Part shown: one piece after another, positions 1 through 32,736 of the stretch
Position numbering within the stretch: position 1 is the first letter of the stretch
How the letters are laid out: every line of letters begins with the position of its first letter
From: Azolla caroliniana
Lineage: Eukaryota > Plantae > Polypodiophyta
NCBI GenBank assembly: GCA_043228905.1
Contig: JBHGNT010000348.1
Span: 1 to 32,736, forward strand
DNA length: 32,736 bases
Reading direction: 5' to 3'
Program-made: the position numbers and the translations under genes
The notes under the pieces: model-generated
The model's input: only the letters and a program-made list of their open reading frames with translations
Databases searched by the model: none
What the model was told of the DNA's origin: nothing

Positions 1-151
1 ACCTGATCGTGCGTGCGTGCGTGCGTGTTGTGCGCGAGCGTGGAGAAATATGATTGAGAGGGTTATGAGAACGTCAAGACACCACACAGAGCACACCATT
101 TACATTTACGATGTTCAGAAAGTGTATAGTTGAAAAAGTTATGTACGTTCT

Positions 152-1188
152 TTAAAAGTGGCGAATACAAGCGCGTGGGCGAAGATCACATTGTTGGAGA
201 AGGCGAGAGGTTGCCACGCTTAGAAGTTGTTCCTCCTCACCGGCCTTGAAACGACGACGTTGTTCCTCATCTTGTCGTCCGGTCATGCGATAACGGCGCT
301 CGTCCTCCTCGCGCTCGCTACTGTCTCTCTCTCGCTCGGCATCCTCTTCCATTGACGACGTTCCCTTGACACTTGGTTATGGCGGTGACCATCATTGCGT
401 GCCTCTTCTCCGCTAATGTATAAGGCCTCGCGGAGGCGGTTGCAACGCTCTTCTACGGGGATTTGTTCCACGTTCCTGCAGCATCTTTCGGAGGGCCTTG
501 CATATCGGCTGATTTCATCCCAAGAGGTGCGACGGCTTCGTCCACGTTCTTCCTTCTCATTACGTTCTTGTAGGTGGCGGACCTGCCTATCGACGAAGTT
601 TTGGCACTCTTGCCTCAACTCTCGGTCTCGTGGCTCATCGCGATCGCGGCCGCGACGATCCCGTTCCTCTTCGGACTCTCTCTTGTTGTCTCTGCGACGT
701 CCTTCATCGAGGGATCCTTCACGACGTCGGTCGCGCCTCTCCTGCTCGACATCCTCCTCCCTGCGTCGATCGCGCCTCTCGTCACGTGACTCATCACGAT
801 CGCGACCGCGACGATCCCGTTCCTCTTCGGACTCTCTCTTGTTGTCTCCGTAGCGCCCCTCCTCGATGGACCCCTCGCGACGTCCCCCGCGCCTCTCCTC
901 ATCGAAATCCTCCTCCCTGCGTCGATCGCGCCTCTCCTCACGTGGCTCATCGCGATCGTGACTGCGACGATCCCGGTCCTCATCCGACTCTCTCTTGTTG
1001 TCTCTGTAGCGCCCCTCATCGATGGATCCCTCACGACGTCCGCTGCGCCTCTCCTCGTCGACATCCTCCTCCCTACGTCGATCGCGCCTCTCCTCTTCGC
1101 GATCCCGTCCTACAGATCTAGCATTGGCCGCGCCGCAGGCGGCTAGCATGATAACCGCCATGAGGAATATGATAGTGAGCTTCGCCAT
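152..1188 (-). pseudogene. Copy 1 of the Arg-rich 2S-albumin-like precursor, 1-bp frameshift near 349-350 (may be a sequencing error)
   Basis: 'ctcttccattg' versus consensus 'ctcttcccattg'. The ORF is split into 283..1188 and 152..352. Confidence 0.7.
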
Positions 1189-1254
1189 TGCTTGTGTTCG
1201 GAACTACCCCGGTTCTCTCTCCGCCTATTTGAGTGTGTCATGGTTGATCCACCC

Positions 1255-1388
1255 TTATATACACAAGGCCATGCATGTCTAGTACATGCATGTCCCTTCC
1301 ACGTCCATTCCTATAGACGTTAATGGCATGATCCATACTTGGGCCACGGAAGAGACCATTCACTTTTATCCACCCCCCTTTACGTGTC
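1255..1388 (-). promoter_or_regulatory. Promoter module of copy 1 (TATA, 2x RY, ABRE)
   Basis: Same motifs as copy 2, with one C missing near 1299-1300. Confidence 0.72.
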
Positions 1389-2311
1389 CAGGATCCTCCT
1401 GCTTCGACCTACCATATCACTAGCCCTATACTCACCTCCATCACACCAGGAGTGGGATTATGCACTTGGGCATTTCAAATCTACTAACCTATGGACGCTT
1501 CGTCCATATTGCAACGTAGACAGTATGTAACCTCATGATAGCCACCTACACATGTGATGCCATTGAGGTTGTAGAGTGCGTATGGGCCTCGTAAAACGAG
1601 GATAAGGTGGTGAGAAAAGGTTTTTAGGGTGTTGGTTCTCTCCACGAAAACGTTATCGGTGGTTGTGGCCACGAGGGGGTTTAGAATCCATTGCGACCAA
1701 CATACGGACGACGACACGCGTTTTCATTGTGATTACAAGATCCGTCGTCGTTGTGGACGCTGCAACCACCGGAGGAATATGAAGGTGGCACCATTCAAGG
1801 ACAACATTTCTAGGTGAAACATGCGTGGGTTGGTTGGTTCACACGATGATGAAAAATGGTAGATAGACATGGGAATTTCATGTGGAATCATGTTTGTAGT
1901 AGGAGTTACGATCAGCCACTACTATTGCGCACATCATGGTACGGCGAGACACGGCATTGTATGAGGGTGGCTTCAATACAACATTGTGATGGCATCGACG
2001 TTTGACGAGTTTCGCGTTGCTCGTGAGAGAGATAGCGATAGATGGATAGAGATAGATATAGGTAGGGTGGGAGTGGGTAGTGTGCGTGTGGGCACGTTAC
2101 CTAATCATGTGTGCGTGGAGTTTCATTTTGCTTGTGCAATGAGCGAGCGAGGGCACGCGACCTGATCGTGCGTGCGTGCGTGCGTGTTGTGCGCGAGCGT
2201 GGGAGAAATATGATTGAGAGGGTTATGAGAACGTCAAGACACCACACAGAGCACACCATTTACATTTACGATGTTCAGAAAGTGTATAGTTGAAAAAGTT
2301 ATGTACGTTCT

Positions 2312-3349
2312 TTAAAAGTGGCGAATACAAGCGCGTGGGCGAAGATCACATTGTTGGAGAAGGCGAGAGGTTGCCACGCTTAGAAGTTGTTCCTCCTCAC
2401 CGGCCTTGAAACGACGACGTTGTTCCTCATCTTGTCGTCCGGTCATGCGATAACGGCGCTCGTCCTCCTCGCGCTCGCTACTGTCTCTCTCTCGCTCGGC
2501 ATCCTCTTCCCATTGACGACGTTCCCTTGACACTTGGTTATGGCGGTGACCATCATTGCGTGCCTCTTCTCCGCTAATGTATAAGGCCTCGCGGAGGCGG
2601 TTGCAACGCTCTTCTACGGGGATTTGTTCCACGTTCCTGCAGCATCTTTCGGAGGGCCTTGCATATCGGCTGATTTCATCCCAAGAGGTGCGACGGCTTC
2701 GTCCACGTTCTTCCTTCTCATTACGTTCTTGTAGGTGGCGGACCTGCCTATCGACGAAGTTTTGGCACTCTTGCCTCAACTCTCGGTCTCGTGGCTCATC
2801 GCGATCGCGGCCGCGACGATCCCGTTCCTCTTCGGACTCTCTCTTGTTGTCTCTGCGACGTCCTTCATCGAGGGATCCTTCACGACGTCGGTCGCGCCTC
2901 TCCTGCTCGACATCCTCCTCCCTGCGTCGATCGCGCCTCTCGTCACGTGACTCATCACGATCGCGACCGCGACGATCCCGTTCCTCTTCGGACTCTCTCT
3001 TGTTGTCTCCGTAGCGCCCCTCCTCGATGGACCCCTCGCGACGTCCCCCGCGCCTCTCCTCATCGAAATCCTCCTCCCTGCGTCGATCGCGCCTCTCCTC
3101 ACGTGGCTCATCGCGATCGTGACTGCGACGATCCCGGTCCTCATCCGACTCTCTCTTGTTGTCTCTGTAGCGCCCCTCATCGATGGATCCCTCACGACGT
3201 CCGCTGCGCCTCTCCTCGTCGACATCCTCCTCCCTACGTCGATCGCGCCTCTCCTCTTCGCGATCCCGTCCTACAGATCTAGCATTGGCCGCGCCGCAGG
3301 CGGCTAGCATGATAACCGCCATGAGGAATATGATAGTGAGCTTCGCCAT
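2312..3349 (-). CDS. Copy 2: Arg/Glu/Asp-rich 2S-albumin-like (prolamin superfamily) storage protein precursor, 345 aa, intronless
   Basis: Signal peptide MAKLTIIFLMAVIMLAACGAANA and plant-type start context GCAATGGCG. Cys at 195, 236, 237, 249, 334, 341. Motifs ERCCRNVEQIPVEERCNRLREAL and RLLQQCDLRPRAC resemble the 2S-albumin CC..L..CxC.AL and LPxxCxL..C segments. RY/ABRE promoter directly upstream. Confidence 0.85.
   Translation of the reverse strand: MAKLTIIFLMAVIMLAACGAANARSVGRDREEERRDRRREEDVDEERRSGRREGSIDEGRYRDNKRESDEDRDRRSHDRDEPREERRDRRREEDFDEERRGGRREGSIEEGRYGDNKRESEEERDRRGRDRDESRDERRDRRREEDVEQERRDRRREGSLDEGRRRDNKRESEEERDRRGRDRDEPRDRELRQECQNFVDRQVRHLQERNEKEERGRSRRTSWDEISRYARPSERCCRNVEQIPVEERCNRLREALYISGEEARNDGHRHNQVSRERRQWEEDAERERDSSEREEDERRYRMTGRQDEEQRRRFKAGEEEQLLSVATSRLLQQCDLRPRACIRHF
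2789..3256 (-). repeat. Intragenic 156-bp (52-aa) repeat x3, present in every copy (copy 2 coordinates shown)
   Basis: DNKRES motif with Asn at residues 64, 116 and 168, exactly 52 apart. EERRDRRREED-like starts at residues 32, 84 and 136. Confidence 0.95.
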
Positions 3350-3415
3350 TGCTTGTGTTCGGAACTACCCCGGTTCTCTCTCCGCCTATTTGAGTGTGTC
3401 ATGGTTGATCCACCC

Positions 3416-3422
3416 TTATATA
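3416..3422 (-). promoter_or_regulatory. TATA box (TATATAA) of copy 2
   Basis: Minus strand GTATATAAGG, 67-73 bp upstream of the ATG. An initiator-like CTCA has its A at 3391, 31 bp from the TATA start. Confidence 0.75.
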
Positions 3423-3430
3423 CACAAGGC

Positions 3431-3453
3431 CATGCATGTCTAGTACATGCATG
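3431..3453. promoter_or_regulatory. Two RY elements CATGCATG (3431-3438, 3446-3453), B3-domain ABI3/FUS3/LEC2-type sites
   Basis: catgcatg-tctagta-catgcatg immediately upstream of the TATA box. RY is the established seed-storage-gene element. Confidence 0.8.
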
Positions 3454-3460
3454 TCCCTTC

Positions 3461-3550
3461 CCACGTCCATTCCTATAGACGTTAATGGCATGATCCATAC
3501 TTGGGCCACGGAAGAGACCATTCACTTTTATCCACCCCCCTTTACGTGTC
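3461..3550. promoter_or_regulatory. ABRE/ACGT-core cluster: ACGTGG on minus strand (3461-3466), GACGTT (3478-3483), TACGTGTC (3543-3550)
   Basis: TACGTGTC matches the ABRE consensus ACGTG(G/T)C and lies within about 100 bp of the RY pair. Confidence 0.65.
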
Positions 3551-4185
3551 CAGGATCCTCCTGCTTCGACCTACCATATCACTAGCCCTATACTCACCTC
3601 CATCACACCAGGAGTGGGATTATGCACTTGGGCATTTCAAATCTACTAACCTATGGACGCTTCGTCCATATTGCAACGTAGACAGTATGTAACCTCATGA
3701 TAGCCACCTACACATGTGATGCCATTGAGGTTGTAGAGTGCGTATGGGCCTCGTAAAACGAGGATAAGGTGGTGAGAAAAGGTTTTTAGGGTGTTGGTTC
3801 TCTCCACGAAAACGTTATCGGTGGTTGTGGCCACGAGGGGGTTTAGAATCCATTGCGACCAACATACGGACGACGACACGCGTTTTCATTGTGATTACAA
3901 GATCCGTCGTCGTTGTGGACGCTGCAACCACCGGAGGAATATGAAGGTGGCACCATTCAAGGACAACATTTCTAGGTGAAACATGCGTGGGTTGGTTGGT
4001 TCACACGATGATGAAAATGGTAGATAGACATGGGAATTTCATGTGGAATCATGTTTGTAGTAGGAGTTACGATCAGCCACTACTATTGCGCACATCATGG
4101 TACGGCGAGACACGGCATTGTATGAGGGTGGCTTCAATACAACATTGTGATGGCATCGACGTTTGACGAGTTTCGCGTTGCTCGT

Positions 4186-4347
4186 GAGAGAGATAGCGAT
4201 AGATGGATAGAGATAGATATAGGTAGGGTGGGAGTGGGTAGTGTGCGTGTGGGCACGTTACCTAATCATGTGTGCGTGGAGTTTCATTTTGCTTGTGCAA
4301 TGAGCGAGCGAGGGCACGCGACCTGATCGTGCGTGCGTGCGTGCGTG
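4186..4347 (+). repeat. Low-complexity spacer tract: degenerate GA/GATA run, G-runs, (GAGC)n and (CGTG)5; present in each unit
   Basis: gagagagatagcgatagatggatagagatagatatagg..., gagcgagcgag, cgtgcgtgcgtgcgtgcgtg read directly. Confidence 0.75.
4283..4288 (-). terminator. Candidate plant poly(A) near-upstream element AATGAA for copy 3 (same position in each unit)
   Basis: Minus-strand AAAATGAAA about 185 bp after the stop codon. I saw no AATAAA in the 3' flank. A TG-rich stretch and TGTAA lie between the stop and this site. Confidence 0.3.
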
Positions 4348-4472
4348 TTGTGCGCGAGCGTGGGAGAAATATGATTGAGAGGGTTATGAGAACGTCAAGA
4401 CACCACACAGAGCACACCATTTACATTTACGATGTTCAGAAAGTGTATAGTTGAAAAAGTTATGTACGTTCT

Positions 4473-5510
4473 TTAAAAGTGGCGAATACAAGCGCGTGGG
4501 CGAAGATCACATTGTTGGAGAAGGCGAGAGGTTGCCACGCTTAGAAGTTGTTCCTCCTCACCGGCCTTGAAACGACGACGTTGTTCCTCATCTTGTCGTC
4601 CGGTCATGCGATAACGGCGCTCGTCCTCCTCGCGCTCGCTACTGTCTCTCTCTCGCTCGGCATCCTCTTCCCATTGACGACGTTCCCTTGACACTTGGTT
4701 ATGGCGGTGACCATCATTGCGTGCCTCTTCTCCGCTAATGTATAAGGCCTCGCGGAGGCGGTTGCAACGCTCTTCTACGGGGATTTGTTCCACGTTCCTG
4801 CAGCATCTTTCGGAGGGCCTTGCATATCGGCTGATTTCATCCCAAGAGGTGCGACGGCTTCGTCCACGTTCTTCCTTCTCATTACGTTCTTGTAGGTGGC
4901 GGACCTGCCTATCGACGAAGTTTTGGCACTCTTGCCTCAACTCTCGGTCTCGTGGCTCATCGCGATCGCGGCCGCGACGATCCCGTTCCTCTTCGGACTC
5001 TCTCTTGTTGTCTCTGCGACGTCCTTCATCGAGGGATCCTTCACGACGTCGGTCGCGCCTCTCCTGCTCGACATCCTCCTCCCTGCGTCGATCGCGCCTC
5101 TCGTCACGTGACTCATCACGATCGCGACCGCGACGATCCCGTTCCTCTTCGGACTCTCTCTTGTTGTCTCCGTAGCGCCCCTCCTCGATGGACCCCTCGC
5201 GACGTCCCCCGCGCCTCTCCTCATCGAAATCCTCCTCCCTGCGTCGATCGCGCCTCTCCTCACGTGGCTCATCGCGATCGTGACTGCGACGATCCCGGTC
5301 CTCATCCGACTCTCTCTTGTTGTCTCTGTAGCGCCCCTCATCGATGGATCCCTCACGACGTCCGCTGCGCCTCTCCTCGTCGACATCCTCCTCCCTACGT
5401 CGATCGCGCCTCTCCTCTTCGCGATCCCGTCCTACAGATCTAGCATTGGCCGCGCCGCAGGCGGCTAGCATGATAACCGCCATGAGGAATATGATAGTGA
5501 GCTTCGCCAT
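4473..5510 (-). CDS. Copy 3: Arg-rich 2S-albumin-like precursor, 345 aa, intact
   Basis: Translation identical to copy 2. Confidence 0.85.
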   Translation of the reverse strand: MAKLTIIFLMAVIMLAACGAANARSVGRDREEERRDRRREEDVDEERRSGRREGSIDEGRYRDNKRESDEDRDRRSHDRDEPREERRDRRREEDFDEERRGGRREGSIEEGRYGDNKRESEEERDRRGRDRDESRDERRDRRREEDVEQERRDRRREGSLDEGRRRDNKRESEEERDRRGRDRDEPRDRELRQECQNFVDRQVRHLQERNEKEERGRSRRTSWDEISRYARPSERCCRNVEQIPVEERCNRLREALYISGEEARNDGHRHNQVSRERRQWEEDAERERDSSEREEDERRYRMTGRQDEEQRRRFKAGEEEQLLSVATSRLLQQCDLRPRACIRHF

Positions 5511-5576
5511 TGCTTGTGTTCGGAACTACCCCGGTTCTCTCTCCGCCTATTTGAGTGTGTCATGGTTGATCCACCC

Positions 5577-5711
5577 TTATATACACAAGGCCATGCATGT
5601 CTAGTACATGCATGTCCCTTCCCACGTCCATTCCTATAGACGTTAATGGCATGATCCATACTTGGGCCACGGAAGAGACCATTCACTTTTATCCACCCCC
5701 CTTTACGTGTC
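5577..5711 (-). promoter_or_regulatory. Promoter module of copy 3 (TATA, 2x RY, ABRE)
   Basis: Same motifs and offsets as copy 2. Confidence 0.72.
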
Positions 5712-6633
5712 CAGGATCCTCCTGCTTCGACCTACCATATCACTAGCCCTATACTCACCTCCATCACACCAGGAGTGGGATTATGCACTTGGGCATTTCA
5801 AATCTACTAACCTATGGACGCTTCGTCCATATTGCAACGTAGACAGTATGTAACCTCATGATAGCCACCTACACATGTGATGCCATTGAGGTTGTAGAGT
5901 GCGTATGGGCCTCGTAAAACGAGGATAAGGTGGTGAGAAAAGGTTTTTAGGGTGTTGGTTCTCTCCACGAAAACGTTATCGGTGGTTGTGGCCACGAGGG
6001 GGTTTAGAATCCATTGCGACCAACATACGGACGACGACACGCGTTTTCATTGTGATTACAAGATCCGTCGTCGTTGTGGACGCTGCAACCACCGGAGGAA
6101 TATGAAGGTGGCACCATTCAAGGACAACATTTCTAGGTGAAACATGCGTGGGTTGGTTGGTTCACACGATGATGAAAATGGTAGATAGACATGGGAATTT
6201 CATGTGGAATCATGTTTGTAGTAGGAGTTACGATCAGCCACTACTATTGCGCACATCATGGTACGGCGAGACACGGCATTGTATGAGGGTGGCTTCAATA
6301 CAACATTGTGATGGCATCGACGTTTGACGAGTTTCGCGTTGCTCGTGAGAGAGATAGCGATAGATGGATAGAGATAGATATAGGTAGGGTGGGAGTGGGT
6401 AGTGTGCGTGTGGGCACGTTACCTAATCATGTGTGCGTGGAGTTTCATTTTGCTTGTGCAATGAGCGAGCGAGGGCACGCGACCTGATCGTGCGTGCGTG
6501 CGTGCGTGTTGTGCGCGAGCGTGGGAGAAATATGATTGAGAGGGTTATGAGAACGTCAAGACACCACACAGAGCACACCATTTACATTTACGATGTTCAG
6601 AAAGTGTATAGTTGAAAAAGTTATGTACGTTCT

Positions 6634-7671: not shown

Positions 7672-7737
7672 TGCTTGTGTTCGGAACTACCCCGGTTCTC
7701 TCTCCGCCTATTTGAGTGTGTCATGGTTGATCCACCC

Positions 7738-8794: not shown

Positions 8795-9831
8795 TTAAAA
8801 GTGGCGAATACAAGCGCGTGGGCGAAGATCACATTGTTGGAGAAGGCGAGAGGTTGCCACGCTTAGAAGTTGTTCCTCCTCACCGGCCTTGAAACGACGA
8901 CGTTGTTCCTCATCTTGTCGTCCGGTCATGCGATAACGGCGCTCGTCCTCCTCGCGCTCGCTACTGTCTCTCTCTCGCTCGGCATCCTCTTCCCATTGAC
9001 GACGTTCCCTTGACACTTGGTTATGGCGGTGACCATCATTGCGTGCCTCTTCTCCGCTAATGTATAAGGCCTCGCGGAGGCGGTTGCAACGCTCTTCTAC
9101 GGGGATTTGTTCCACGTTCCTGCAGCATCTTTCGGAGGGCCTTGCATATCGGCTGATTTCATCCCAAGAGGTGCGACGGCTTCGTCCACGTTCTTCCTTC
9201 TCATTACGTTCTTGTAGGTGGCGGACCTGCCTATCGACGAAGTTTTGGCACTCTTGCCTCAACTCTCGGTCTCGTGGCTCATCGCGATCGCGGCCGCGAC
9301 GATCCCGTTCCTCTTCGGACTCTCTCTTGTTGTCTCTGCGACGTCCTTCATCGAGGGATCCTTCACGACGTCGGTCGCGCCTCTCCTGCTCGACATCCTC
9401 CTCCCTGCGTCGATCGCGCCTCTCGTCACGTGACTCATCACGATCGCGACCGCGACGATCCCGTTCCTCTTCGGACTCTCTCTTGTTGTCTCCGTAGCGC
9501 CCCTCCTCGATGGACCCCTCGCGACGTCCCCCGCGCCTCTCCTCATCGAAATCCTCCTCCCTGCGTCGATCGCGCCTCTCCTCACGTGGCTCATCGCGAT
9601 CGTGACTGCGACGATCCCGGTCCTCATCCGACTCTCTCTTGTTGTCTCTGTAGCGCCCCTCATCGATGGATCCCTCACGACGTCCGCTGCGCCTCTCCTC
9701 GTCGACATCCTCCTCCTACGTCGATCGCGCCTCTCCTCTTCGCGATCCCGTCCTACAGATCTAGCATTGGCCGCGCCGCAGGCGGCTAGCATGATAACCG
9801 CCATGAGGAATATGATAGTGAGCTTCGCCAT
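8795..9831 (-). pseudogene. Copy 5, 1-bp frameshift near 9715-9716 (may be a sequencing error)
   Basis: 'cctcctcctacg' versus consensus 'cctcctccctacg'. The frame is lost after about residue 39. Confidence 0.7.
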
Positions 9832-10954: not shown

Positions 10955-11966
10955 TTAAAAGTGGCGAATACAAGCGCGTGGGCGAAGATCACATTGTTGG
11001 AGAAGGCGAGAGGTTGCCACGCTTAGAAGTTGTTCCTCCTCACCGGCCTTGAAACGACGACGTTGTTCCTCATCTTGTCGTCCGGTCATGCGATAACGGC
11101 GCTCGTCCTCCTCGCGCTCGCTACTGTCTCTCTCCTCGCTCGGCATCCTCTTCCCATTGACGACGTTCCCTTGACACTTGGTTATGGCGGTGACCATCAT
11201 TGCGTGCCTCTTCTCCGCTAATGTATAAGGCCTCGCGGAGGCGGTTGCAACGCTCTTCTACGGGGATTTGTTCCACGTTCCTGCAGCATCTTTCGGAGGG
11301 CCTTGCATATCGGCTGATTTCATCCCAAGAGGTGCGACGGCTTCGTCCACGTTCTTCCTTCTCATTACGTTCTTGTAGGTGGCGGACCTGCCTATCGACG
11401 AAGTTTTGGCACTCTTGCCTCAACTCTCGGTCTCGTGGCTCATCGCGATCGCGGCCGCGACGATCCCGTTCCTCTTCGGACTCTCTCTTGTTGTCTCTGC
11501 GACGTCCTTCATCGAGGGATCCTTCACGACGTCGGTCGCGCCTCTCCTGCTCGACATCCTCCTCCCTGCGTCGATCGCGCCTCTCGTCACGTGACTCATC
11601 ACGATCGCGACCGCGACGATCCCGTTCCTCTTCGGACTCTCTCTTGTACCCCTCGCGACGTCCCCCGCGCCTCTCCTCATCGAAATCCTCCTCCCTGCGT
11701 CGATCGCGCCTCTCCTCACGTGGCTCATCGCGATCGTGACTGCGACGATCCCGGTCCTCATCCGACTCTCTCTTGTTGTCTCTGTAGCGCCCCTCATCGA
11801 TGGATCCCTCACGACGTCCGCTGCGCCTCTCCTCGTCGACATCCTCCTCCCTACGTCGATCGCGCCTCTCCTCTTCGCGATCCCGTCCTACAGATCTAGC
11901 ATTGGCCGCGCCGCAGGCGGCTAGCATGATAACCGCCATGAGGAATATGATAGTGAGCTTCGCCAT
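10955..11966 (-). pseudogene. Copy 6, in-frame 27-bp deletion (junction 11647/11648) plus 1-bp insertion near 11134-11135
   Basis: 'ctcttgt|acccctc' lacks tgtctccgtagcgcccctcctcgatgg. 'tctctcctcgctc' has an extra C. The ORF ends at 281 aa, before the last two Cys. Confidence 0.7.
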
Positions 11967-12167: not shown

Positions 12168-13089
12168 CAGGATCCTCCTGCTTCGACCTACCATATCACT
12201 AGCCCTATACTCACCTCCATCACACCAGGAGTGGGATTATGCACTTGGGCATTTCAAATCTACTAACCTATGGACGCTTCGTCCATATTGCAACGTAGAC
12301 AGTATGTAACCTCATGATAGCCACCTACACATGTGATGCCATTGAGGTTGTAGAGTGCGTATGGGCCTCGTAAAACGAGGATAAGGTGGTGAGAAAAGGT
12401 TTTTAGGGTGTTGGTTCTCTCCACGAAAACGTTATCGGTGGTTGTGGCCACGAGGGGGTTTAGAATCCATTGCGACCAACATACGGACGACGACACGCGT
12501 TTTCATTGTGATTACAAGATCCGTCGTCGTTGTGGACGCTGCAACCACCGGAGGAATATGAAGGTGGCACCATTCAAGGACAACATTTCTAGGTGAAACA
12601 TGCGTGGGTTGGTTGGTTCACACGATGATGAAAATGGTAGATAGACATGGGAATTTCATGTGGAATTATGTTTGTAGTAGGAGTTACGATCAGCCACTAC
12701 TATTGCGCACATCATGGTACGGCGAGACACGGCATTGTATGAGGGTGGCTTCAATACAACATTGTGATGGCATCGACGTTTGACGAGTTTCGCGTTGCTC
12801 GTGAGAGAGATAGCGATAGATGGATAGAGATAGATATAGGTAGGGTGGGAGTGGGTAGTGTGCGTGTGGGCACGTTACCTAATCATGTGTGCGTGGAGTT
12901 TCATTTTGCTTGTGCAATGAGCGAGCGAGGGCACGCGACCTGATCGTGCGTGCGTGCGTGCATGTTGTGCGCGAGCGTGGGAGAAATATGATTGAGAGGG
13001 TTATGAGAACGTCAAGACACCACACAGAGCACACCATTTACATTTACGATGTTCAGAAAGTGTATAGTTGAAAAAGTTATGTACGTTCT

Positions 13090-14127
13090 TTAAAAGTGGC
13101 GAATACAAGCGCGTGGGCGAAGATCACATTGTTGGAGAAGGCGAGAGGTTGCCACGCTTAGAAGTTGTTCCTCCTCACCGGCCTTGAAACGACGACGTTG
13201 TTCCTCATCTTGTCGTCCGGTCATGCGATAACGGCGCTCGTCCTCCTCGCGCTCGCTACTGTCTCTCTCTCGCTCGGCATCCTCTTCCCATTGACGACGT
13301 TCCCTTGACACTTGGTTATGGCGGTGACCATCATTGCGTGCCTCTTCTCCGCTAATGTATAAGGCCTCGCGGAGGCGGTTGCAACGCTCTTCTACGGGGA
13401 TTTGTTCCACGTTCCTGCAGCATCTTTCGGAGGGCCTTGCATATCGGCTGATTTCATCCCAAGAGGTGCGACGGCTTCGTCCACGTTCTTCCTTCTCATT
13501 ACGTTCTTGTAGGTGGCGGACCTGCCTATCGACGAAGTTTTGGCACTCTTGCCTCAACTCTCGGTCTCGTGGCTCATCGCGATCGCGGCCGCGACGATCC
13601 CGTTCCTCTTCGGACTCTCTCTTGTTGTCTCTGCGACGTCCTTCATCGAGGGATCCTTCACGACGTCGGTCGCGCCTCTCCTGCTCGACATCCTCCTCCC
13701 TGCGTCGATCGCGCCTCTCGTCACGTGACTCATCACGATCGCGACCGCGACGATCCCGTTCCTCTTCGGACTCTCTCTTGTTGTCTCCGTAGCGCCCCTC
13801 CTCGATGGACCCCTCGCGACGTCCCCCGCGCCTCTCCTCATCGAAATCCTCCTCCCTGCGTCGATCGCGCCTCTCCTCACGTGGCTCATCGCGATCGTGA
13901 CTGCGACGATCCCGGTCCTCATCCGACTCTCTCTTGTTGTCTCTGTAGCGCCCCTCATCGATGGATCCCTCACGACGTCCGCTGCGCCTCTCCTCGTCGA
14001 CATCCTCCTCCCTACGTCGATCGCGCCTCTCCTCTTCGCGATCCCGTCCTACAGATCTAGCATTGGCCGCGCCGCAGGCGGCTAGCATGATAACCGCCAT
14101 GAGGAATATGATAGTGAGCTTCGCCAT
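13090..14127 (-). CDS. Copy 7: Arg-rich 2S-albumin-like precursor, 345 aa, intact
   Basis: Translation identical to copy 2. Confidence 0.85.
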   Translation of the reverse strand: MAKLTIIFLMAVIMLAACGAANARSVGRDREEERRDRRREEDVDEERRSGRREGSIDEGRYRDNKRESDEDRDRRSHDRDEPREERRDRRREEDFDEERRGGRREGSIEEGRYGDNKRESEEERDRRGRDRDESRDERRDRRREEDVEQERRDRRREGSLDEGRRRDNKRESEEERDRRGRDRDEPRDRELRQECQNFVDRQVRHLQERNEKEERGRSRRTSWDEISRYARPSERCCRNVEQIPVEERCNRLREALYISGEEARNDGHRHNQVSRERRQWEEDAERERDSSEREEDERRYRMTGRQDEEQRRRFKAGEEEQLLSVATSRLLQQCDLRPRACIRHF

Positions 14128-14193
14128 TGCTTGTGTTCGGAACTACCCCGGTTCTCTCTCCGCCTATTTGAGTGTGTCATGGTTGATCCACCC

Positions 14194-14328
14194 TTATATA
14201 CACAAGGCCATGCATGTCTAGTACATGCATGTCCCTTCCCACGTCCATTCCTATAGACGTTAATGGCATGATCCATACTTGGGCCACGGAAGAGACCATT
14301 CACTTTTATCCACCCCCCTTTACGTGTC
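14194..14328 (-). promoter_or_regulatory. Promoter module of copy 7 (TATA, 2x RY, ABRE)
   Basis: Same motifs and offsets as copy 2. Confidence 0.72.
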
Positions 14329-15250
14329 CAGGATCCTCCTGCTTCGACCTACCATATCACTAGCCCTATACTCACCTCCATCACACCAGGAGTGGGATTA
14401 TGCACTTGGGCATTTCAAATCTACTAACCTATGGACGCTTCGTCCATATTGCAACGTAGACAGTATGTAACCTCATGATAGCCACCTACACATGTGATGC
14501 CATTGAGGTTGTAGAGTGCGTATGGGCCTCGTAAAACGAGGATAAGGTGGTGAGAAAAGGTTTTTAGGGTGTTGGTTCTCTCCACGAAAACGTTATCGGT
14601 GGTTGTGGCCACGAGGGGGTTTAGAATCCATTGCGACCAACATACGGACGACGACACGCGTTTTCATTGTGATTACAAGATCCGTCGTCGTTGTGGACGC
14701 TGCAACCACCGGAGGAATATGAAGGTGGCACCATTCAAGGACAACATTTCTAGGTGAAACATGCGTGGGTTGGTTGGTTCACACGATGATGAAAATGGTA
14801 GATAGACATGGGAATTTCATGTGGAATCATGTTTGTAGTAGGAGTTACGATCAGCCACTACTATTGCGCACATCATGGTACGGCGAGACACGGCATTGTA
14901 TGAGGGTGGCTTCAATACAACATTGTGATGGCATCGACGTTTGACGAGTTTCGCGTTGCTCGTGAGAGAGATAGCGATAGATGGATAGAGATAGATATAG
15001 GTAGGGTGGGAGTGGGTAGTGTGCGTGTGGGCACGTTACCTAATCATGTGTGCGTGGAGTTTCATTTTGCTTGTGCAATGAGCGAGCGAGGGCACGCGAC
15101 CTGATCGTGCGTGCGTGCGTGCATGTTGTGCGCGAGCGTGGGAGAAATATGATTGAGAGGGTTATGAGAACGTCAAGACACCACACAGAGCACACCATTT
15201 ACATTTACGATGTTCAGAAAGTGTATAGTTGAAAAAGTTATGTACGTTCT

Positions 15251-23894: not shown

Positions 23895-24932
23895 TTAAAA
23901 GTGGCGAATACAAGCGCGTGGGCGAAGATCACATTGTTGGAGAAGGCGAGAGGTTGCCACGCTTAGAAGTTGTTCCTCCTCACCGGCCTTGAAACGACGA
24001 CGTTGTTCCTCATCTTGTCGTCCGGTCATGCGATAACGGCGCTCGTCCTCCTCGCGCTCGCTACTGTCTCTCTCTCGCTCGGCATCCTCTTCCCATTGAC
24101 GACGTTCCCTTGACACTTGGTTATGGCGGTGACCATCATTGCGTGCCTCTTCTCCGCTAATGTATAAGGCCTCGCGGAGGCGGTTGCAACGCTCTTCTAC
24201 GGGGATTTGTTCCACGTTCCTGCAGCATCTTTCGGAGGGCCTTGCATATCGGCTGATTTCATCCCAAGAGGTGCGACGGCTTCGTCCACGTTCTTCCTTC
24301 TCATTACGTTCTTGTAGGTGGCGGACCTGCCTATCGACGAAGTTTTGGCACTCTTGCCTCAACTCTCAGTCTCGTGGCTCATCGCGATCGCGGCCGCGAC
24401 GATCCCGTTCCTCTTCGGACTCTCTCTTGTTGTCTCTGCGACGTCCTTCATCGAGGGATCCTTCACGACGTCGGTCGCGCCTCTCCTGCTCGACATCCTC
24501 CTCCCTGCGTCGATCGCGCCTCTCGTCACGTGACTCATCACGATCGCGACCGCGACGATCCCGTTCCTCTTCGGACTCTCTCTTGTTGTCTCCGTAGCGC
24601 CCCTCCTCGATGGACCCCTCGCGACGTCCCCCGCGCCTCTCCTCATCGAAATCCTCCTCCCTGCGTCGATCGCGCCTCTCCTCACGTGGCTCATCGCGAT
24701 CGTGACTGCGACGATCCCGGTCCTCATCCGACTCTCTCTTGTTGTCTCTGTAGCGCCCCTCATCGATGGATCCCTCACGACGTCCGCTGCGCCTCTCCTC
24801 GTCGACATCCTCCTCCCTACGTCGATCGCGCCTCTCCTCTTCGCGATCCCGTCCTACAGATCTAGCATTGGCCGCGCCGCAGGCGGCTAGCATGATAACC
24901 GCCATGAGGAATATGATAGTGAGCTTCGCCAT
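23895..24932 (-). pseudogene. Copy 12, nonsense change R189* (CGA>TGA, G>A at 24368); 188-aa ORF 24366..24932
   Basis: 'aactctcagt' versus consensus 'aactctcggt'. Confidence 0.8.
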
Positions 24933-24998
24933 TGCTTGTGTTCGGAACTACCCCGGTTCTCTCTCCGCCTATTTGAGTGTGTCATGGTTGATCCACCC

Positions 24999-25133: not shown

Positions 25134-26055
25134 CAGGATCCTCCTGCTTCGACCTACCATATCACTAGCCCTATACTCACCTCCATCACACCAGGAGTGG
25201 GATTATGCACTTGGGCATTTCAAATCTACTAACCTATGGACGCTTCGTCCATATTGCAACGTAGACAGTATGTAACCTCATGATAGCCACCTACACATGT
25301 GATGCCATTGAGGTTGTAGAGTGCGTATGGGCCTCGTAAAACGAGGATAAGGTGGTGAGAAAAGGTTTTTAGGGTGTTGGTTCTCTCCACGAAAACGTTA
25401 TCGGTGGTTGTGGCCACGAGGGGGTTTAGAATCCATTGCGACCAACATACGGACGACGACACGCGTTTTCATTGTGATTACAAGATCCGTCGTCGTTGTG
25501 GACGCTGCAACCACCGGAGGAATATGAAGGTGGCACCATTCAAGGACAACATTTCTAGGTGAAACATGCGTGGGTTGGTTGGTTCACACGATGATGAAAA
25601 TGGTAGATAGACATGGGAATTTCATGTGGAATCATGTTTGTAGTAGGAGTTACGATCAGCCACTACTATTGCGCACATCATGGTACGGCGAGACACGGCA
25701 TTGTATGAGGGTGGCTTCAATACAACATTGTGATGGCATCGACGTTTGACGAGTTTCGCGTTGCTCGTGAGAGAGATAGCGATAGATGGATAGAGATAGA
25801 TATAGGTAGGGTGGGAGTGGGTAGTGTGCGTGTGGGCACGTTACCTAATCATGTGTGCGTGGAGTTTCATTTTGCTTGTGCAATGAGCGAGCGAGGGCAC
25901 GCGACCTGATCGTGCGTGCGTGCGTGCATGTTGTGCGCGAGCGTGGGAGAAATATGATTGAGAGGGTTATGAGAACGTCAAGACACCACACAGAGCACAC
26001 CATTTACATTTACGATGTTCAGAAAGTGTATAGTTGAAAAAGTTATGTACGTTCT

Positions 26056-27093
26056 TTAAAAGTGGCGAATACAAGCGCGTGGGCGAAGATCACATTGTTG
26101 GAGAAGGCGAGAGGTTGCCACGCTTAGAAGTTGTTCCTCCTCACCGGCCTTGAAACGACGACGTTGTTCCTCATCTTGTCGTCCGGTCATGCGATAACGG
26201 CGCTCGTCCTCCTCGCGCTCGCTACTGTCTCTCTCTCGCTCGGCATCCTCTTCCCATTGACGACGTTCCCTTGACACTTGGTTATGGCGGTGACCATCAT
26301 TGCGTGCCTCTTCTCCGCTAATGTATAAGGCCTCGCGGAGGCGGTTGCAACGCTCTTCTACGGGGATTTGTTCCACGTTCCTGCAGCATCTTTCGGAGGG
26401 CCTTGCATATCGGCTGATTTCATCCCAAGAGGTGCGACGGCTTCGTCCACGTTCTTCCTTCTCATTACGTTCTTGTAGGTGGCGGACCTGCCTATCGACG
26501 AAGTTTTGGCACTCTTGCCTCAACTCTCGGTCTCGTGGCTCATCGCGATCGCGGCCGCGACGATCCCGTTCCTCTTCGGACTCTCTCTTGTTGTCTCTGC
26601 GACGTCCTTCATCGAGGGATCCTTCACGACGTCGGTCGCGCCTCTCCTGCTCGACATCCTCCTCCCTGCGTCGATCGCGCCTCTCGTCACGTGACTCATC
26701 ACGATCGCGACCGCGACGATCCCGTTCCTCTTCGGACTCTCTCTTGTTGTCTCCGTAGCGCCCCTCCTCGATGGACCCCTCGCGACGTCCCCCGCGCCTC
26801 TCCTCATCGAAATCCTCCTCCCTGCGTCGATCGCGCCTCTCCTCACGTGGCTCATCGCGATCGTGACTGCGACGATCCCGGTCCTCATCCGACTCTCTCT
26901 TGTTGTCTCTGTAGCGCCCCTCATCGATGGATCCCTCACGACGTCCGCTGCGCCTCTCCTCGTCGACATCCTCCTCCCTACGTCGATCGCGCCTCTCCTC
27001 TTCGCGATCCCGTCCTACAGATCTAGCATTGGCCGCGCCGCAGGCGGCTAGCATGATAACCGCCATGAGGAATATGATAGTGAGCTTCGCCAT
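26056..27093 (-). CDS. Copy 13: Arg-rich 2S-albumin-like precursor, 345 aa, intact
   Basis: Translation identical to copy 2. Confidence 0.85.
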   Translation of the reverse strand: MAKLTIIFLMAVIMLAACGAANARSVGRDREEERRDRRREEDVDEERRSGRREGSIDEGRYRDNKRESDEDRDRRSHDRDEPREERRDRRREEDFDEERRGGRREGSIEEGRYGDNKRESEEERDRRGRDRDESRDERRDRRREEDVEQERRDRRREGSLDEGRRRDNKRESEEERDRRGRDRDEPRDRELRQECQNFVDRQVRHLQERNEKEERGRSRRTSWDEISRYARPSERCCRNVEQIPVEERCNRLREALYISGEEARNDGHRHNQVSRERRQWEEDAERERDSSEREEDERRYRMTGRQDEEQRRRFKAGEEEQLLSVATSRLLQQCDLRPRACIRHF

Positions 27094-27159
27094 TGCTTGT
27101 GTTCGGAACTACCCCGGTTCTCTCTCCGCCTATTTGAGTGTGTCATGGTTGATCCACCC

Positions 27160-27294
27160 TTATATACACAAGGCCATGCATGTCTAGTACATGCATGTCC
27201 CTTCCCACGTCCATTCCTATAGACGTTAATGGCATGATCCATACTTGGGCCACGGAAGAGACCATTCACTTTTATCCACCCCCCTTTACGTGTC
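27160..27294 (-). promoter_or_regulatory. Promoter module of copy 13 (TATA, 2x RY, ABRE)
   Basis: Same motifs and offsets as copy 2. Confidence 0.72.
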
Positions 27295-28216
27295 CAGGAT
27301 CCTCCTGCTTCGACCTACCATATCACTAGCCCTATACTCACCTCCATCACACCAGGAGTGGGATTATGCACTTGGGCATTTCAAATCTACTAACCTATGG
27401 ACGCTTCGTCCATATTGCAACGTAGACAGTATGTAACCTCATGATAGCCACCTACACATGTGATGCCATTGAGGTTGTAGAGTGCGTATGGGCCTCGTAA
27501 AACGAGGATAAGGTGGTGAGAAAAGGTTTTTAGGGTGTTGGTTCTCTCCACGAAAACGTTATCGGTGGTTGTGGCCACGAGGGGGTTTAGAATCCATTGC
27601 GACCAACATACGGACGACGACACGCGTTTTCATTGTGATTACAAGATCCGTCGTCGTTGTGGACGCTGCAACCACCGGAGGAATATGAAGGTGGCACCAT
27701 TCAAGGACAACATTTCTAGGTGAAACATGCGTGGGTTGGTTGGTTCACACGATGATGAAAATGGTAGATAGACATGGGAATTTCATGTGGAATCATGTTT
27801 GTAGTAGGAGTTACGATCAGCCACTACTATTGCGCACATCATGGTACGGCGAGACACGGCATTGTATGAGGGTGGCTTCAATACAACATTGTGATGGCAT
27901 CGACGTTTGACGAGTTTCGCGTTGCTCGTGAGAGAGATAGCGATAGATGGATAGAGATAGATATAGGTAGGGTGGGAGTGGGTAGTGTGCGTGTGGGCAC
28001 GTTACCTAATCATGTGTGCGTGGAGTTTCATTTTGCTTGTGCAATGAGCGAGCGAGGGCACGCGACCTGATCGTGCGTGCGTGCGTGCATGTTGTGCGCG
28101 AGCGTGGGAGAAATATGATTGAGAGGGTTATGAGAACGTCAAGACACCACACAGAGCACACCATTTACATTTACGATGTTCAGAAAGTGTATAGTTGAAA
28201 AAGTTATGTACGTTCT

Positions 28217-29254
28217 TTAAAAGTGGCGAATACAAGCGCGTGGGCGAAGATCACATTGTTGGAGAAGGCGAGAGGTTGCCACGCTTAGAAGTTGTTCCTC
28301 CTCACCGGCCTTGAAACGACGACGTTGTTCCTCATCTTGTCGTCCGGTCATGCGATAACGGCGCTCGTCCTCCTCGCGCTCGCTACTGTCTCTCTCTCGC
28401 TCGGCATCCTCTTCCCATTGACGACGTTCCCTTGACACTTGGTTATGGCGGTGACCATCATTGCGTGCCTCTTCTCCGCTAATGTATAAGGCCTCGCGGA
28501 GGCGGTTGCAACGCTCTTCTACGGGGATTTGTTCCACGTTCCTGCAGCATCTTTCGGAGGGCCTTGCATATCGGCTGATTTCATCCCAAGAGGTGCGACG
28601 GCTTCGTCCACGTTCTTCCTTCTCATTACGTTCTTGTAGGTGGCGGACCTGCCTATCGACGAAGTTTTGGCACTCTTGCCTCAACTCTCGGTCTCGTGGC
28701 TCATCGCGATCGCGGCCGCGACGATCCCGTTCCTCTTCGGACTCTCTCTTGTTGTCTCTGCGACGTCCTTCATCGAGGGATCCTTCACGACGTCGGTCGC
28801 GCCTCTCCTGCTCGACATCCTCCTCCCTGCGTCGATCGCGCCTCTCGTCACGTGACTCATCACGATCGCGACCGCGACGATCCCGTTCCTCTTCGGACTC
28901 TCTCTTGTTGTCTCCGTAGCGCCCCTCCTCGATGGACCCCTCGCGACGTCCCCCGCGCCTCTCCTCATCGAAATCCTCCTCCCTGCGTCGATCGCGCCTC
29001 TCCTCACGTGGCTCATCGCGATCGTGACTGCGACGATCCCGGTCCTCATCCGACTCTCTCTTGTTGTCTCTGTAGCGCCCCTCATCGATGGATCCCTCAC
29101 GACGTCCGCTGCGCCTCTCCTCGTCGACATCCTCCTCCCTACGTCGATCGCGCCTCTCCTCTTCGCGATCCCGTCCTACAGATCTAGCATTGGCCGCGCC
29201 GCAGGCGGCTAGCATGATAACCGCCATGAGGAATATGATAGTGAGCTTCGCCAT
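28217..29254 (-). CDS. Copy 14: Arg-rich 2S-albumin-like precursor, 345 aa, intact
   Basis: Translation identical to copy 2. Confidence 0.85.
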   Translation of the reverse strand: MAKLTIIFLMAVIMLAACGAANARSVGRDREEERRDRRREEDVDEERRSGRREGSIDEGRYRDNKRESDEDRDRRSHDRDEPREERRDRRREEDFDEERRGGRREGSIEEGRYGDNKRESEEERDRRGRDRDESRDERRDRRREEDVEQERRDRRREGSLDEGRRRDNKRESEEERDRRGRDRDEPRDRELRQECQNFVDRQVRHLQERNEKEERGRSRRTSWDEISRYARPSERCCRNVEQIPVEERCNRLREALYISGEEARNDGHRHNQVSRERRQWEEDAERERDSSEREEDERRYRMTGRQDEEQRRRFKAGEEEQLLSVATSRLLQQCDLRPRACIRHF

Positions 29255-29320
29255 TGCTTGTGTTCGGAACTACCCCGGTTCTCTCTCCGCCTATTTGAGT
29301 GTGTCATGGTTGATCCACCC

Positions 29321-29455
29321 TTATATACACAAGGCCATGCATGTCTAGTACATGCATGTCCCTTCCCACGTCCATTCCTATAGACGTTAATGGCATGATC
29401 CATACTTGGGCCACGGAAGAGACCATTCACTTTTATCCACCCCCCTTTACGTGTC
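29321..29455 (-). promoter_or_regulatory. Promoter module of copy 14 (TATA, 2x RY, ABRE)
   Basis: Same motifs and offsets as copy 2. Confidence 0.72.
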
Positions 29456-30377
29456 CAGGATCCTCCTGCTTCGACCTACCATATCACTAGCCCTATACTC
29501 ACCTCCATCACACCAGGAGTGGGATTATGCACTTGGGCATTTCAAATCTACTAACCTATGGACGCTTCGTCCATATTGCAACGTAGACAGTATGTAACCT
29601 CATGATAGCCACCTACACATGTGATGCCATTGAGGTTGTAGAGTGCGTATGGGCCTCGTAAAACGAGGATAAGGTGGTGAGAAAAGGTTTTTAGGGTGTT
29701 GGTTCTCTCCACGAAAACGTTATCGGTGGTTGTGGCCACGAGGGGGTTTAGAATCCATTGCGACCAACATACGGACGACGACACGCGTTTTCATTGTGAT
29801 TACAAGATCCGTCGTCGTTGTGGACGCTGCAACCACCGGAGGAATATGAAGGTGGCACCATTCAAGGACAACATTTCTAGGTGAAACATGCGTGGGTTGG
29901 TTGGTTCACACGATGATGAAAATGGTAGATAGACATGGGAATTTCATGTGGAATCATGTTTGTAGTAGGAGTTACGATCAGCCACTACTATTGCGCACAT
30001 CATGGTACGGCGAGACACGGCATTGTATGAGGGTGGCTTCAATACAACATTGTGATGGCATCGACGTTTGACGAGTTTCGCGTTGCTCGTGAGAGAGATA
30101 GCGATAGATGGATAGAGATAGATATAGGTAGGGTGGGAGTGGGTAGTGTGCGTGTGGGCACGTTACCTAATCATGTGTGCGTGGAGTTTCATTTTGCTTG
30201 TGCAATGAGCGAGCGAGGGCACGCGACCTGATCGTGCGTGCGTGCGTGCATGTTGTGCGCGAGCGTGGGAGAAATATGATTGAGAGGGTTATGAGAACGT
30301 CAAGACACCACACAGAGCACACCATTTACATTTACGATGTTCAGAAAGTGTATAGTTGAAAAAGTTATGTACGTTCT

Positions 30378-31415
30378 TTAAAAGTGGCGAATACAAGCGC
30401 GTGGGCGAAGATCACATTGTTGGAGAAGGCGAGAGGTTGCCACGCTTAGAAGTTGTTCCTCCTCACCGGCCTTGAAACGACGACGTTGTTCCTCATCTTG
30501 TCGTCCGGTCATGCGATAACGGCGCTCGTCCTCCTCGCGCTCGCTACTGTCTCTCTCTCGCTCGGCATCCTCTTCCCATTGACGACGTTCCCTTGACACT
30601 TGGTTATGGCGGTGACCATCATTGCGTGCCTCTTCTCCGCTAATGTATAAGGCCTCGCGGAGGCGGTTGCAACGCTCTTCTACGGGGATTTGTTCCACGT
30701 TCCTGCAGCATCTTTCGGAGGGCCTTGCATATCGGCTGATTTCATCCCAAGAGGTGCGACGGCTTCGTCCACGTTCTTCCTTCTCATTACGTTCTTGTAG
30801 GTGGCGGACCTGCCTATCGACGAAGTTTTGGCACTCTTGCCTCAACTCTCGGTCTCGTGGCTCATCGCGATCGCGGCCGCGACGATCCCGTTCCTCTTCG
30901 GACTCTCTCTTGTTGTCTCTGCGACGTCCTTCATCGAGGGATCCTTCACGACGTCGGTCGCGCCTCTCCTGCTCGACATCCTCCTCCCTGCGTCGATCGC
31001 GCCTCTCGTCACGTGACTCATCACGATCGCGACCGCGACGATCCCGTTCCTCTTCGGACTCTCTCTTGTTGTCTCCGTAGCGCCCCTCCTCGATGGACCC
31101 CTCGCGACGTCCCCCGCGCCTCTCCTCATCGAAATCCTCCTCCCTGCGTCGATCGCGCCTCTCCTCACGTGGCTCATCGCGATCGTGACTGCGACGATCC
31201 CGGTCCTCATCCGACTCTCTCTTGTTGTCTCTGTAGCGCCCCTCATCGATGGATCCCTCACGACGTCCGCTGCGCCTCTCCTCGTCGACATCCTCCTCCC
31301 TACGTCGATCGCGCCTCTCCTCTTCGCGATCCCGTCCTACAGATCTAGCATTGGCCGCGCCGCAGGCGGCTAGCATGATAACCGCCATGAGGAATATGAT
31401 AGTGAGCTTCGCCAT
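30378..31415 (-). CDS. Copy 15: Arg-rich 2S-albumin-like precursor, 345 aa, intact
   Basis: Translation identical to copy 2. Confidence 0.85.
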   Translation of the reverse strand: MAKLTIIFLMAVIMLAACGAANARSVGRDREEERRDRRREEDVDEERRSGRREGSIDEGRYRDNKRESDEDRDRRSHDRDEPREERRDRRREEDFDEERRGGRREGSIEEGRYGDNKRESEEERDRRGRDRDESRDERRDRRREEDVEQERRDRRREGSLDEGRRRDNKRESEEERDRRGRDRDEPRDRELRQECQNFVDRQVRHLQERNEKEERGRSRRTSWDEISRYARPSERCCRNVEQIPVEERCNRLREALYISGEEARNDGHRHNQVSRERRQWEEDAERERDSSEREEDERRYRMTGRQDEEQRRRFKAGEEEQLLSVATSRLLQQCDLRPRACIRHF

Positions 31416-31481
31416 TGCTTGTGTTCGGAACTACCCCGGTTCTCTCTCCGCCTATTTGAGTGTGTCATGGTTGATCCACCC

Positions 31482-31616
31482 TTATATACACAAGGCCATG
31501 CATGTCTAGTACATGCATGTCCCTTCCCACGTCCATTCCTATAGACGTTAATGGCATGATCCATACTTGGGCCACGGAAGAGACCATTCACTTTTATCCA
31601 CCCCCCTTTACGTGTC
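31482..31616 (-). promoter_or_regulatory. Promoter module of copy 15 (TATA, 2x RY, ABRE)
   Basis: Same motifs and offsets as copy 2. Confidence 0.72.
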
Positions 31617-32538
31617 CAGGATCCTCCTGCTTCGACCTACCATATCACTAGCCCTATACTCACCTCCATCACACCAGGAGTGGGATTATGCACTTGGGCA
31701 TTTCAAATCTACTAACCTATGGACGCTTCGTCCATATTGCAACGTAGACAGTATGTAACCTCATGATAGCCACCTACACATGTGATGCCATTGAGGTTGT
31801 AGAGTGCGTATGGGCCTCGTAAAACGAGGATAAGGTGGTGAGAAAAGGTTTTTAGGGTGTTGGTTCTCTCCACGAAAACGTTATCGGTGGTTGTGGCCAC
31901 GAGGGGGTTTAGAATCCATTGCGACCAACATACGGACGACGACACGCGTTTTCATTGTGATTACAAGATCCGTCGTCGTTGTGGACGCTGCAACCACCGG
32001 AGGAATATGAAGGTGGCACCATTCAAGGACAACATTTCTAGGTGAAACATGCGTGGGTTGGTTGGTTCACACGATGATGAAAATGGTAGATAGACATGGG
32101 AATTTCATGTGGAATCATGTTTGTAGTAGGAGTTACGATCAGCCACTACTATTGCGCACATCATGGTACGGCGAGACACGGCATTGTATGAGGGTGGCTT
32201 CAATACAACATTGTGATGGCATCGACGTTTGACGAGTTTCGCGTTGCTCGTGAGAGAGATAGCGATAGATGGATAGAGATAGATATAGGTAGGGTGGGAG
32301 TGGGTAGTGTGCGTGTGGGCACGTTACCTAATCATGTGTGCGTGGAGTTTCATTTTGCTTGTGCAATGAGCGAGCGAGGGCACGCGACCTGATCGTGCGT
32401 GCGTGCGTGCATGTTGTGCGCGAGCGTGGGAGAAATATGATTGAGAGGGTTATGAGAACGTCAAGACACCACACAGAGCACACCATTTACATTTACGATG
32501 TTCAGAAAGTGTATAGTTGAAAAAGTTATGTACGTTCT

Positions 32539-32736
32539 TTAAAAGTGGCGAATACAAGCGCGTGGGCGAAGATCACATTGTTGGAGAAGGCGAGAGGTTG
32601 CCACGCTTAGAAGTTGTTCCTCCTCACCGGCCTTGAAACGACGACGTTGTTCCTCATCTTGTCGTCCGGTCATGCGATAACGGCGCTCGTCCTCCTCGCG
32701 CTCGCTACTGTCTCTCTCTCGCTCGGCATCCTCTTC
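32539..32736 (-). CDS. Copy 16, 3' end only (truncated by the window edge)
   Basis: Matches the C-terminal coding segment ending ...RACIRHF*, with the stop at 32539-32541. Confidence 0.8.
   Translation of the reverse strand, partial: EEDAERERDSSEREEDERRYRMTGRQDEEQRRRFKAGEEEQLLSVATSRLLQQCDLRPRACIRHF

Follow-up and report, generated by a model that had tools for sequence, protein, structure and literature searches.

A near-identical tandem array of a probable storage-protein gene in the water fern Azolla caroliniana

Known clusters of plant storage-protein genes hold tens of diverged copies, many of them broken; an array resembling ribosomal DNA (rDNA) would be an unusual arrangement for a protein-coding gene of a plant. 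Contig JBHGNT010000348.1 of the Azolla caroliniana assembly GCA_043228905.1 raises the question whether a fern has such an array. The window analysed here (32,736 nucleotides, positions 1 to 32,736 of the forward strand) is this entire unplaced contig, C348, and contains one short gene repeated head-to-tail. Is the repetition real, what does the gene encode, and what keeps its copies alike and numerous? Our answer, which taken as a whole we consider probable, is that the window is a fragment of a real array, likely on chromosome C12, that the gene likely encodes a storage protein, and that an estimated 200-450 copies are likely homogenised and likely kept for gene dosage.

The repeat has a period of 2161 bp: the window matches itself at 89% at this lag, and non-multiples among the top lags reach at most 36%. 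The contig amounts to 15.15 units. A unit-by-unit alignment to the modal unit gave 15 complete units (46-32432; starts at 46, 2206, 4367, 6528, 8689, 10849, 12984, 15145, 17306, 19467, 21628, 23789, 25950, 28111 and 30272) and two fragments at the window ends (1-45 and 32433-32736), slightly fewer than the at least 16 complete units counted in an earlier, sequence-only reading of the window. The modal unit (12984-15144) is found without change in 8 of the 15. Each unit carries one intronless open reading frame (ORF) of 345 aa on the minus strand, at 13090-14127 in the modal unit. The sequence-only reading had already described a 2161-bp head-to-tail unit with an intronless coding sequence (CDS), which the lag self-match and the ORF list bear out, and its tally of variants proved exact once all units were aligned: three sites with substitutions, six 1-bp indels (including one in the leading fragment) and a single deletion of 27 bp, at window 11648.

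Fifteen full coding copies are present in the window, all on the minus strand, and 11 are intact: the modal one and those starting at 3349, 5510, 7671, 16288, 18449, 20610, 22771, 27093, 29254 and 31415. Three are frameshifted (starts 1188, 9831 and 11966). Copy 1 (283-1188), at the contig end, has a 1-bp deletion near 349 and copy 5 (9259-9831) one near 9715, both probably read errors. Copy 6 (11121-11966) combines the 27-bp deletion at 11648 with a 1-bp insertion at 11134, and adjoins a switch from G-type to A-type units, a probable read join. Copy 12 (24366-24932) is cut to 188 aa by a nonsense change at 24368, which may be real or an error. The long direct repeats of the unit sit within the CDS, inverted repeats of at least 14 bp are absent from it, and an Rfam scan of one unit returned no match. 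A tandemly arrayed transposon (terminal-repeat retrotransposon in miniature, miniature inverted-repeat element or long terminal repeat (LTR) element) was considered and set aside, the repeat scan and the ORFs showing neither terminal repeats nor a transposase in the unit.

The array extends beyond this contig. In the assembly, which comprises 523 Mb in 1503 contigs (at least 22 of them multi-megabase), 171 sites carry a 25-base pattern located at the start codon, and two allele-specific patterns led to further array contigs. Unit DNA covers 372,539 bp on 12 unplaced contigs, or ∼172 units. Apart from C59 (161 kb), these contigs are small (14.5-45 kb). The first 18.9 kb of C59 are non-array DNA, and the 3.4 kb of this flank adjacent to the array have no second full copy in the genome. 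Then follow ∼42 units of a 2200-bp type (358 aa), progressively more split by transposons, and the final 245 bp are 100% identical to C12 13,114,219-13,114,463, a segment adjoining a 100-N gap. In the 510 kb of C12 that were read, decayed unit DNA amounts to 29.8 kb in 48 pieces spread along 390 kb, mostly at 82-87% identity far from the gap and at up to 97% near it. The window-type array likely sits on C12, and because 10 of 15 matches among the decayed C12 copies span a 39-bp segment absent from window-type units, the window type is likely derived. With the locus largely absent from the chromosome assembly, annotation would overlook the array.

Three LTR elements lie inside units; their LTR pairs are identical at 454/454, 799/802 and 455/455 positions and are accompanied by short target-site duplications. 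Contig C250 has an intact LTR element with a 5-bp duplication among window-type units. A concatemer formed by amplification would show neither transposons with target-site duplications nor decayed edge copies, which argues for a real array. The earlier statement that no mobile element intervenes holds for the window and fails elsewhere, since LTR and DNA transposons split the array on C59 and C250. The insertions at C59:70528-84565 and C250:19442-26459 come from a single LTR retrotransposon family; their LTRs are identical and their open frames are 1479 aa long. The former consists of two elements in tandem, and the family has been recently active. A separate 12-kb insertion in a unit (C59:129944-142028) has terminal inverted repeats and what looks like a 4-bp duplication, and it contains an open frame of 619 aa and arrays of palindromic repeats.

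Copy number was estimated from short-read sequencing runs. The unit, whole or partial, is contained in 20 of 24 listed runs, from 15 studies and none recorded as RNA. Seven of the 24, from five studies, were mapped on flank and unit (X4, X6, X7, X12, X15, X21 and X22; two possible source runs were left out), the copy ratio being the single-contig k-mer depth of the unit over that of the single-copy flank or of the aldolase gene within it. This ratio was 218-260 in X7, 348-428 in X15, 328-350 in X21 and 274-394 in X22, and in X12 it was 343-468 for a window-like type and 158-209 for a second type; the five runs, with ratios of 218-468, fall under four species labels. In X4 and X6 the unit had depths of 11 and 91 and the flank 0-2, the value for X4 being 0. 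The end-to-start joint expected of head-to-tail units is present in X6 and X12 contigs. By the depth check that the sequence-only reading had proposed, runs of other genotypes exceed single-copy depth by factors in the hundreds, which points to a real array and not to an assembly expansion. From contig k-mer depth we estimate ∼200-450 copies per haploid genome; if anything, the assembly under-represents the array.

Two side observations concern these runs. In X7 (L008:9341-9815) the 2200-bp type seems to have a depth of ∼700 (9053 minus 8346), near that of 42 units on one homologue; this would imply ∼450 window-type units on the other homologue, a weak estimate, being the difference of two contig means. 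In X6 (L110:7878-9085) the coding part is ∼5 times deeper than the spacer (450-500 against 91.5). Candidate causes are a second unit type, bias, or RNA mixed with carried-over DNA; contigs cannot give an RNA level, and the excess is not used as evidence here.

Core units are 99.8-100% identical to each other, and along the array they fall into haplotype blocks set by a few variants. Under the other species labels the coding part is ∼95% identical, X22 contigs differing at 9/205 and 11/204 bases, and in X22 and X21 the variants listed reach the full depth of the unit and so appear common to all copies within a species. Copies are therefore more alike within than between species (99.8-100% in the core against ∼95% for X22), as in rDNA. 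The other mark of an rDNA-like locus, hundreds of head-to-tail copies at a chromosomal site, is seen in the ratios of 218-468, the unit joints and the position of C59 at the C12 gap, with window-type units themselves not directly anchored. In X12 a pair of flank haplotypes is accompanied by two types of unit, one of which shares alleles with X22, an apparent hybrid or polyploid pattern. Concerted evolution is well supported by the species-fixed variants and haplotype blocks. The sequence-only reading had offered very recent amplification or strong concerted evolution; the latter stands, and a recent burst alone is insufficient because four species labels have hundreds of copies, variants appear fixed within species, and decayed copies at 82-97% identity extend over 390 kb. 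The array is an old, maintained amplification.

Between species, alignment at 80% fails over most of the spacer but succeeds in the proximal promoter and one upstream island. Nine coding differences were found among 40 of 584 rows; two were dropped as alleles private to the C59 reference, and of the seven kept six are synonymous (22% expected, p 6e-4). Together with alignment of coding and promoter DNA where most of the spacer fails, this suggests selection on the protein. The ORF is intact in 143 of 164 scored assembled copies. Among decayed C12 copies, C>T changes affect 14% of CG and CHG sites but 3.5% of CHH sites, and the locus thus attracts methylation. The spacer island (L110:9490-9570; in unit 7, about window 14660-14740) begins and ends ∼540-620 bp ahead of the start codon. 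It can be aligned in organism D although the spacer around it cannot, and is a candidate upstream regulatory element. Separately, a 2-bp frameshifting insertion at unit position 392 occurs in five units interleaved with intact ones (C59:39045-56654), a broken allele spreading locally through homogenisation.

The small contigs also carry signs of faulty joining. Outside C59, 51 of 62 private 1-2 bp indels lie at most 2.5 kb from a contig end or a large deletion, where 35% would be expected (p 4e-14). Private deletions of at least 18 bp are present in 7 of the 11 small contigs; none is common to two contigs, and most have 0-2 bp of microhomology. In all three contigs that hold both A-type and G-type units the junction of the types adjoins such a deletion, and the single haplotype switch of the window adjoins its 27-bp deletion. 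Since indels and deletions cluster in this way and unit types meet at private deletions, the window is probably a mosaic, with a join near 11,650 between two reads or groups of reads. A real 27-bp variant is unlikely, given the private, unshared deletions in 7 of 11 small contigs and the type switches beside them; this deletion and the 1-bp indels are probably read-join artefacts. The deletion, the frameshifts and the order of units in the window should not be trusted. These artefacts bear on unit order and indels of this contig and leave the existence of the array unaffected.

What the gene encodes was approached through the protein and its promoter. The first 20 residues are hydrophobic, and a signal peptide is predicted from hydropathy at about residues 1-23 (14059-14127, as all features here on the minus strand). 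Three internal repeats of 156 bp (52 aa), rich in Arg, Glu and Asp and 86-87% identical, follow at 13565-14034; for this charged repeat, half of the chain, there is no Pfam match. A prolamin-superfamily domain (13093-13560) contains six Cys (195, 236, 237, 249, 334 and 341), with an 84-residue charged insert between Cys249 and Cys334. The C-terminal 156 aa match PF00234 at 22.7 bits (E 1.2e-4; cut-off 21.7), which places the protein in the prolamin superfamily, and the whole protein scores 19.9 bits, under the cut-off. The 2S-albumin-like assignment of the sequence-only reading thus survives at superfamily level (22.7 against 21.7 bits) and not in the cysteine pattern, six of eight being present. 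Average proteins contain about 16% nitrogen; the mature chain contains 22.1% by mass, with 28.6% Arg, a net charge of -5 and few hydrophobic residues. The one Atlas match listed, a prolamin cluster (0.79), is no more than a lead, and a single-sequence AlphaFold2 model of the C-terminal 161 aa was uninformative (pTM 0.32). The product is predicted to be a secreted six-cysteine relative of the prolamin superfamily.

In the predicted proximal promoter (14194-14244) a TATA-like box lies at -73 and an ACGTG core at -117, with a pair of RY boxes (CATGCATG) between them, at -89 and -104 (14209-14216 and 14224-14231). Two RY 8-mers in the proximal 200 nt occurred in 0 of 3000 dinucleotide shuffles, and two anywhere in 0.1%; the motif had been picked after the sequence was seen. 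RY boxes are sites for ABI3/FUS3/LEC2. Fern ABI3/LEC2-type genes are expressed in mature sporangia according to the available text of PMC5379062, and fern spores contain 2S albumins according to that of PMC4973428. Fold family, composition and RY boxes together make a spore-storage protein likely, the sink being spores and not seeds because the host is a fern.

The unit structure, near-identity, ∼172 assembled units, anchoring of C59, target-site duplications, decayed edge and depth ratios are read here as follows. A germline array would be kept uniform by unequal crossing-over and gene conversion, the core turning over fast so that new units are clean. Edge units would escape homogenisation, gather transposons and decay at CG and CHG sites. 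The array would be kept large if a short burst of reserve-protein synthesis in spores were limited by template number; dosage is thus the reason we infer, from sequence, for the array. We advance more tentatively, and with some doubt, a wider scheme in which heterosporous water ferns would stock a single giant haploid megaspore, without a polyploid endosperm, by holding their main nitrogen-reserve gene in a genus-wide rDNA-like array of 0.5-1 Mb with 200-450 active copies, alleles perhaps tenfold different in copy number setting spore provisioning.

Several points weigh against a dosage array of a storage gene on C12. No contig joins window-type units directly to C12. The depth ratios are estimates, contig depth being no copy number and GC content being uncorrected (53% in the unit, ∼39% in the flank); yet a 200-fold depth step far exceeds GC or contig-depth bias. 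A single study supplied X15, X21 and X22, while X7, without any difference from the assembly flank over 3.2 kb, may be the same genotype. The between-species test is thin, with seven positions from 40/584 rows, and within-array variation is near neutral: the distinct changes comprise 17 synonymous, 40 missense and 1 nonsense, on 226 and 809 sites, giving a ratio of ∼0.67 that includes errors and edge copies. The CG/CHG decay is a methylation signature, and a large part of the array may be silent. The eight-cysteine motif of 2S albumins (C-C-CC-CxC-C-C) is incomplete, the first and fifth of the eight being missing from the mature protein. In 2S albumins these two pair with each other, so three disulphide bonds could still form. 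Sequence searches of the PDB gave no match at E up to 10, and homologue searches gave 1 match among 7989 scored candidates, 3 in the representatives library and 1 among 40 shorter candidates, with no named homologue; none of the three homologue fragments looked up had an informative name.

Of the competing explanations, a gene-derived satellite accords best with these points. One or a few copies would work, and the rest would be methylated, silent repeats amplified by drift, in keeping with the near-neutral variation within the array, the CG/CHG decay of edge copies and a copy number that is ∼twofold different between runs of one species label. Hundreds of copies in all four species labels, and coding and promoter DNA that aligns between species where most spacer does not, argue against it, as do the 143 of 164 intact copies and the six of seven synonymous changes, although conversion from a few selected copies could account for some of this. 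We regard a satellite as unlikely. A somewhat lower probability falls to a real dosage array whose protein has another job, such as antifungal or anti-herbivore defence, a spore-wall or desiccation function, or food for a symbiont. The prolamin superfamily includes inhibitors and wall proteins (available text of PMC4973428), the homologue searches found no characterised homologue, and half of the chain is a charged repeat without a Pfam match; but 22% nitrogen, a net charge of -5, few hydrophobic residues and paired RY boxes suit a reserve protein better than a cationic antimicrobial.

It is far less probable that a modest chromosomal array of ∼40 copies, as on C59, is joined by somatic or extrachromosomal amplification that gives the high depth. 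Indeed, every window-type unit lies on an unplaced contig, without a join to unique DNA. Against this stand the intact LTR element with its 5-bp duplication among window-type units on C250, the haplotype blocks ordered along the array, and contigs of X15 and X12, where window-type alleles are dominant, that reach 10-28 bases over the same junction of flank and array, too short to serve as bridges. That a low-copy gene was expanded in assembly or amplified into a concatemer, as the small contigs with their read-join signs (51/62 private indels near ends or large deletions against 35% expected) might have suggested, is refuted by unit depths more than 200 times that of the flank in runs from other genotypes and species, besides the transposons with target-site duplications inside the array, and we give it next to no credence. 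The storage-gene array kept for dosage remains the reading we prefer.

How does the locus compare with known systems? Arrays of rDNA and histone genes are uniform within species and different between them, with spacers that change faster than genes and with decayed edges. The Azolla array resembles them in within-species uniformity, fast spacer, decayed edges and the two types in the apparent hybrid X12, and differs in holding a likely tissue-specific protein gene instead of a housekeeping RNA or histone. Homogenisation of rDNA is treated in the available text of PMC8133586. Fern-spore 2S albumin (matteuccin), seed 2S albumins and cereal alpha-globulin share with the Azolla gene a prolamin-superfamily cysteine skeleton, the absence of introns, RY boxes and, if the hydropathy prediction holds, a signal peptide; matteuccin is likened by description alone, from the available part of PMC4973428. 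The Azolla protein also resembles rice alpha-globulin, as characterised in the same source, in the long loop that precedes its final pair of cysteines. Relative to 2S albumins the latter stands apart in its 345 aa, three 52-aa Arg/Glu/Asp repeats, six instead of eight cysteines, 29% Arg and hundreds of gene copies.

Maize alpha-zein (PMC3121756) and wheat alpha-gliadin (PMC5980091), as far as the accessible parts of these sources describe them, are tandem storage genes in which the newest copies are intact and older ones broken and hit by retroelements, likewise seen here. Wheat has 47 alpha-gliadin genes over three genomes, 26 of them intact (PMC5980091, available text), and zein copies have diverged, often with transposons lying between them (PMC3121756, available text), whereas the Azolla array has 2.2-kb units in hundreds of copies, with a core above 99.8% identity including the spacer. 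The primate coding macrosatellites DUX4/D4Z4, REXO1L1 and USP17, in the accessible text of PMC4063668, are similar in having a multi-kb gene-bearing unit in more than 100 copies, collapsed at an assembly gap, with high copy number common to related species; they differ in being animal loci whose products are not bulk reserve proteins. Searches of the open-access literature and of the main texts of the Azolla papers PMC8386757, PMC6786969 and PMC12400808 gave no mention of the array, supplements and subscription papers lying outside this scope. Should several hundred homogenised copies be kept from species to species, the mode of evolution known from rDNA and histone genes would reach a tissue-specific plant protein gene. 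The locus offers a sequence handle on fern spore provisioning, which bears on the origin of seed maturation programmes, and, with its short unit, marker variants, two-type hybrids and natural copy-number differences, a system for studying dosage versus silencing.

The flank of C59 holds an OEP24-like gene and a presumed aldolase gene (C59:9852-16846), the latter ∼2 kb from the array edge. The best named matches of the OEP24 exon are Adiantum (77%) and Ceratopteris (73%), conifers reaching 63-66%. Both genes are likely missing from the chromosome scaffolds, because the contig is unplaced and the adjacent 3.4 kb have no full copy elsewhere. A cupin search for a second arrayed storage gene identified no vicilin or legumin locus, three stretches of its largest cluster being examined. 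That cluster (C8:17.10-18.02 Mb) has ∼25 cupin-domain matches. The five genes examined in the three stretches are intronless, diverged and separated by retroelements, and we take them, from their motifs, to encode germin-like proteins. They form an ordinary cluster and a useful contrast to the array.

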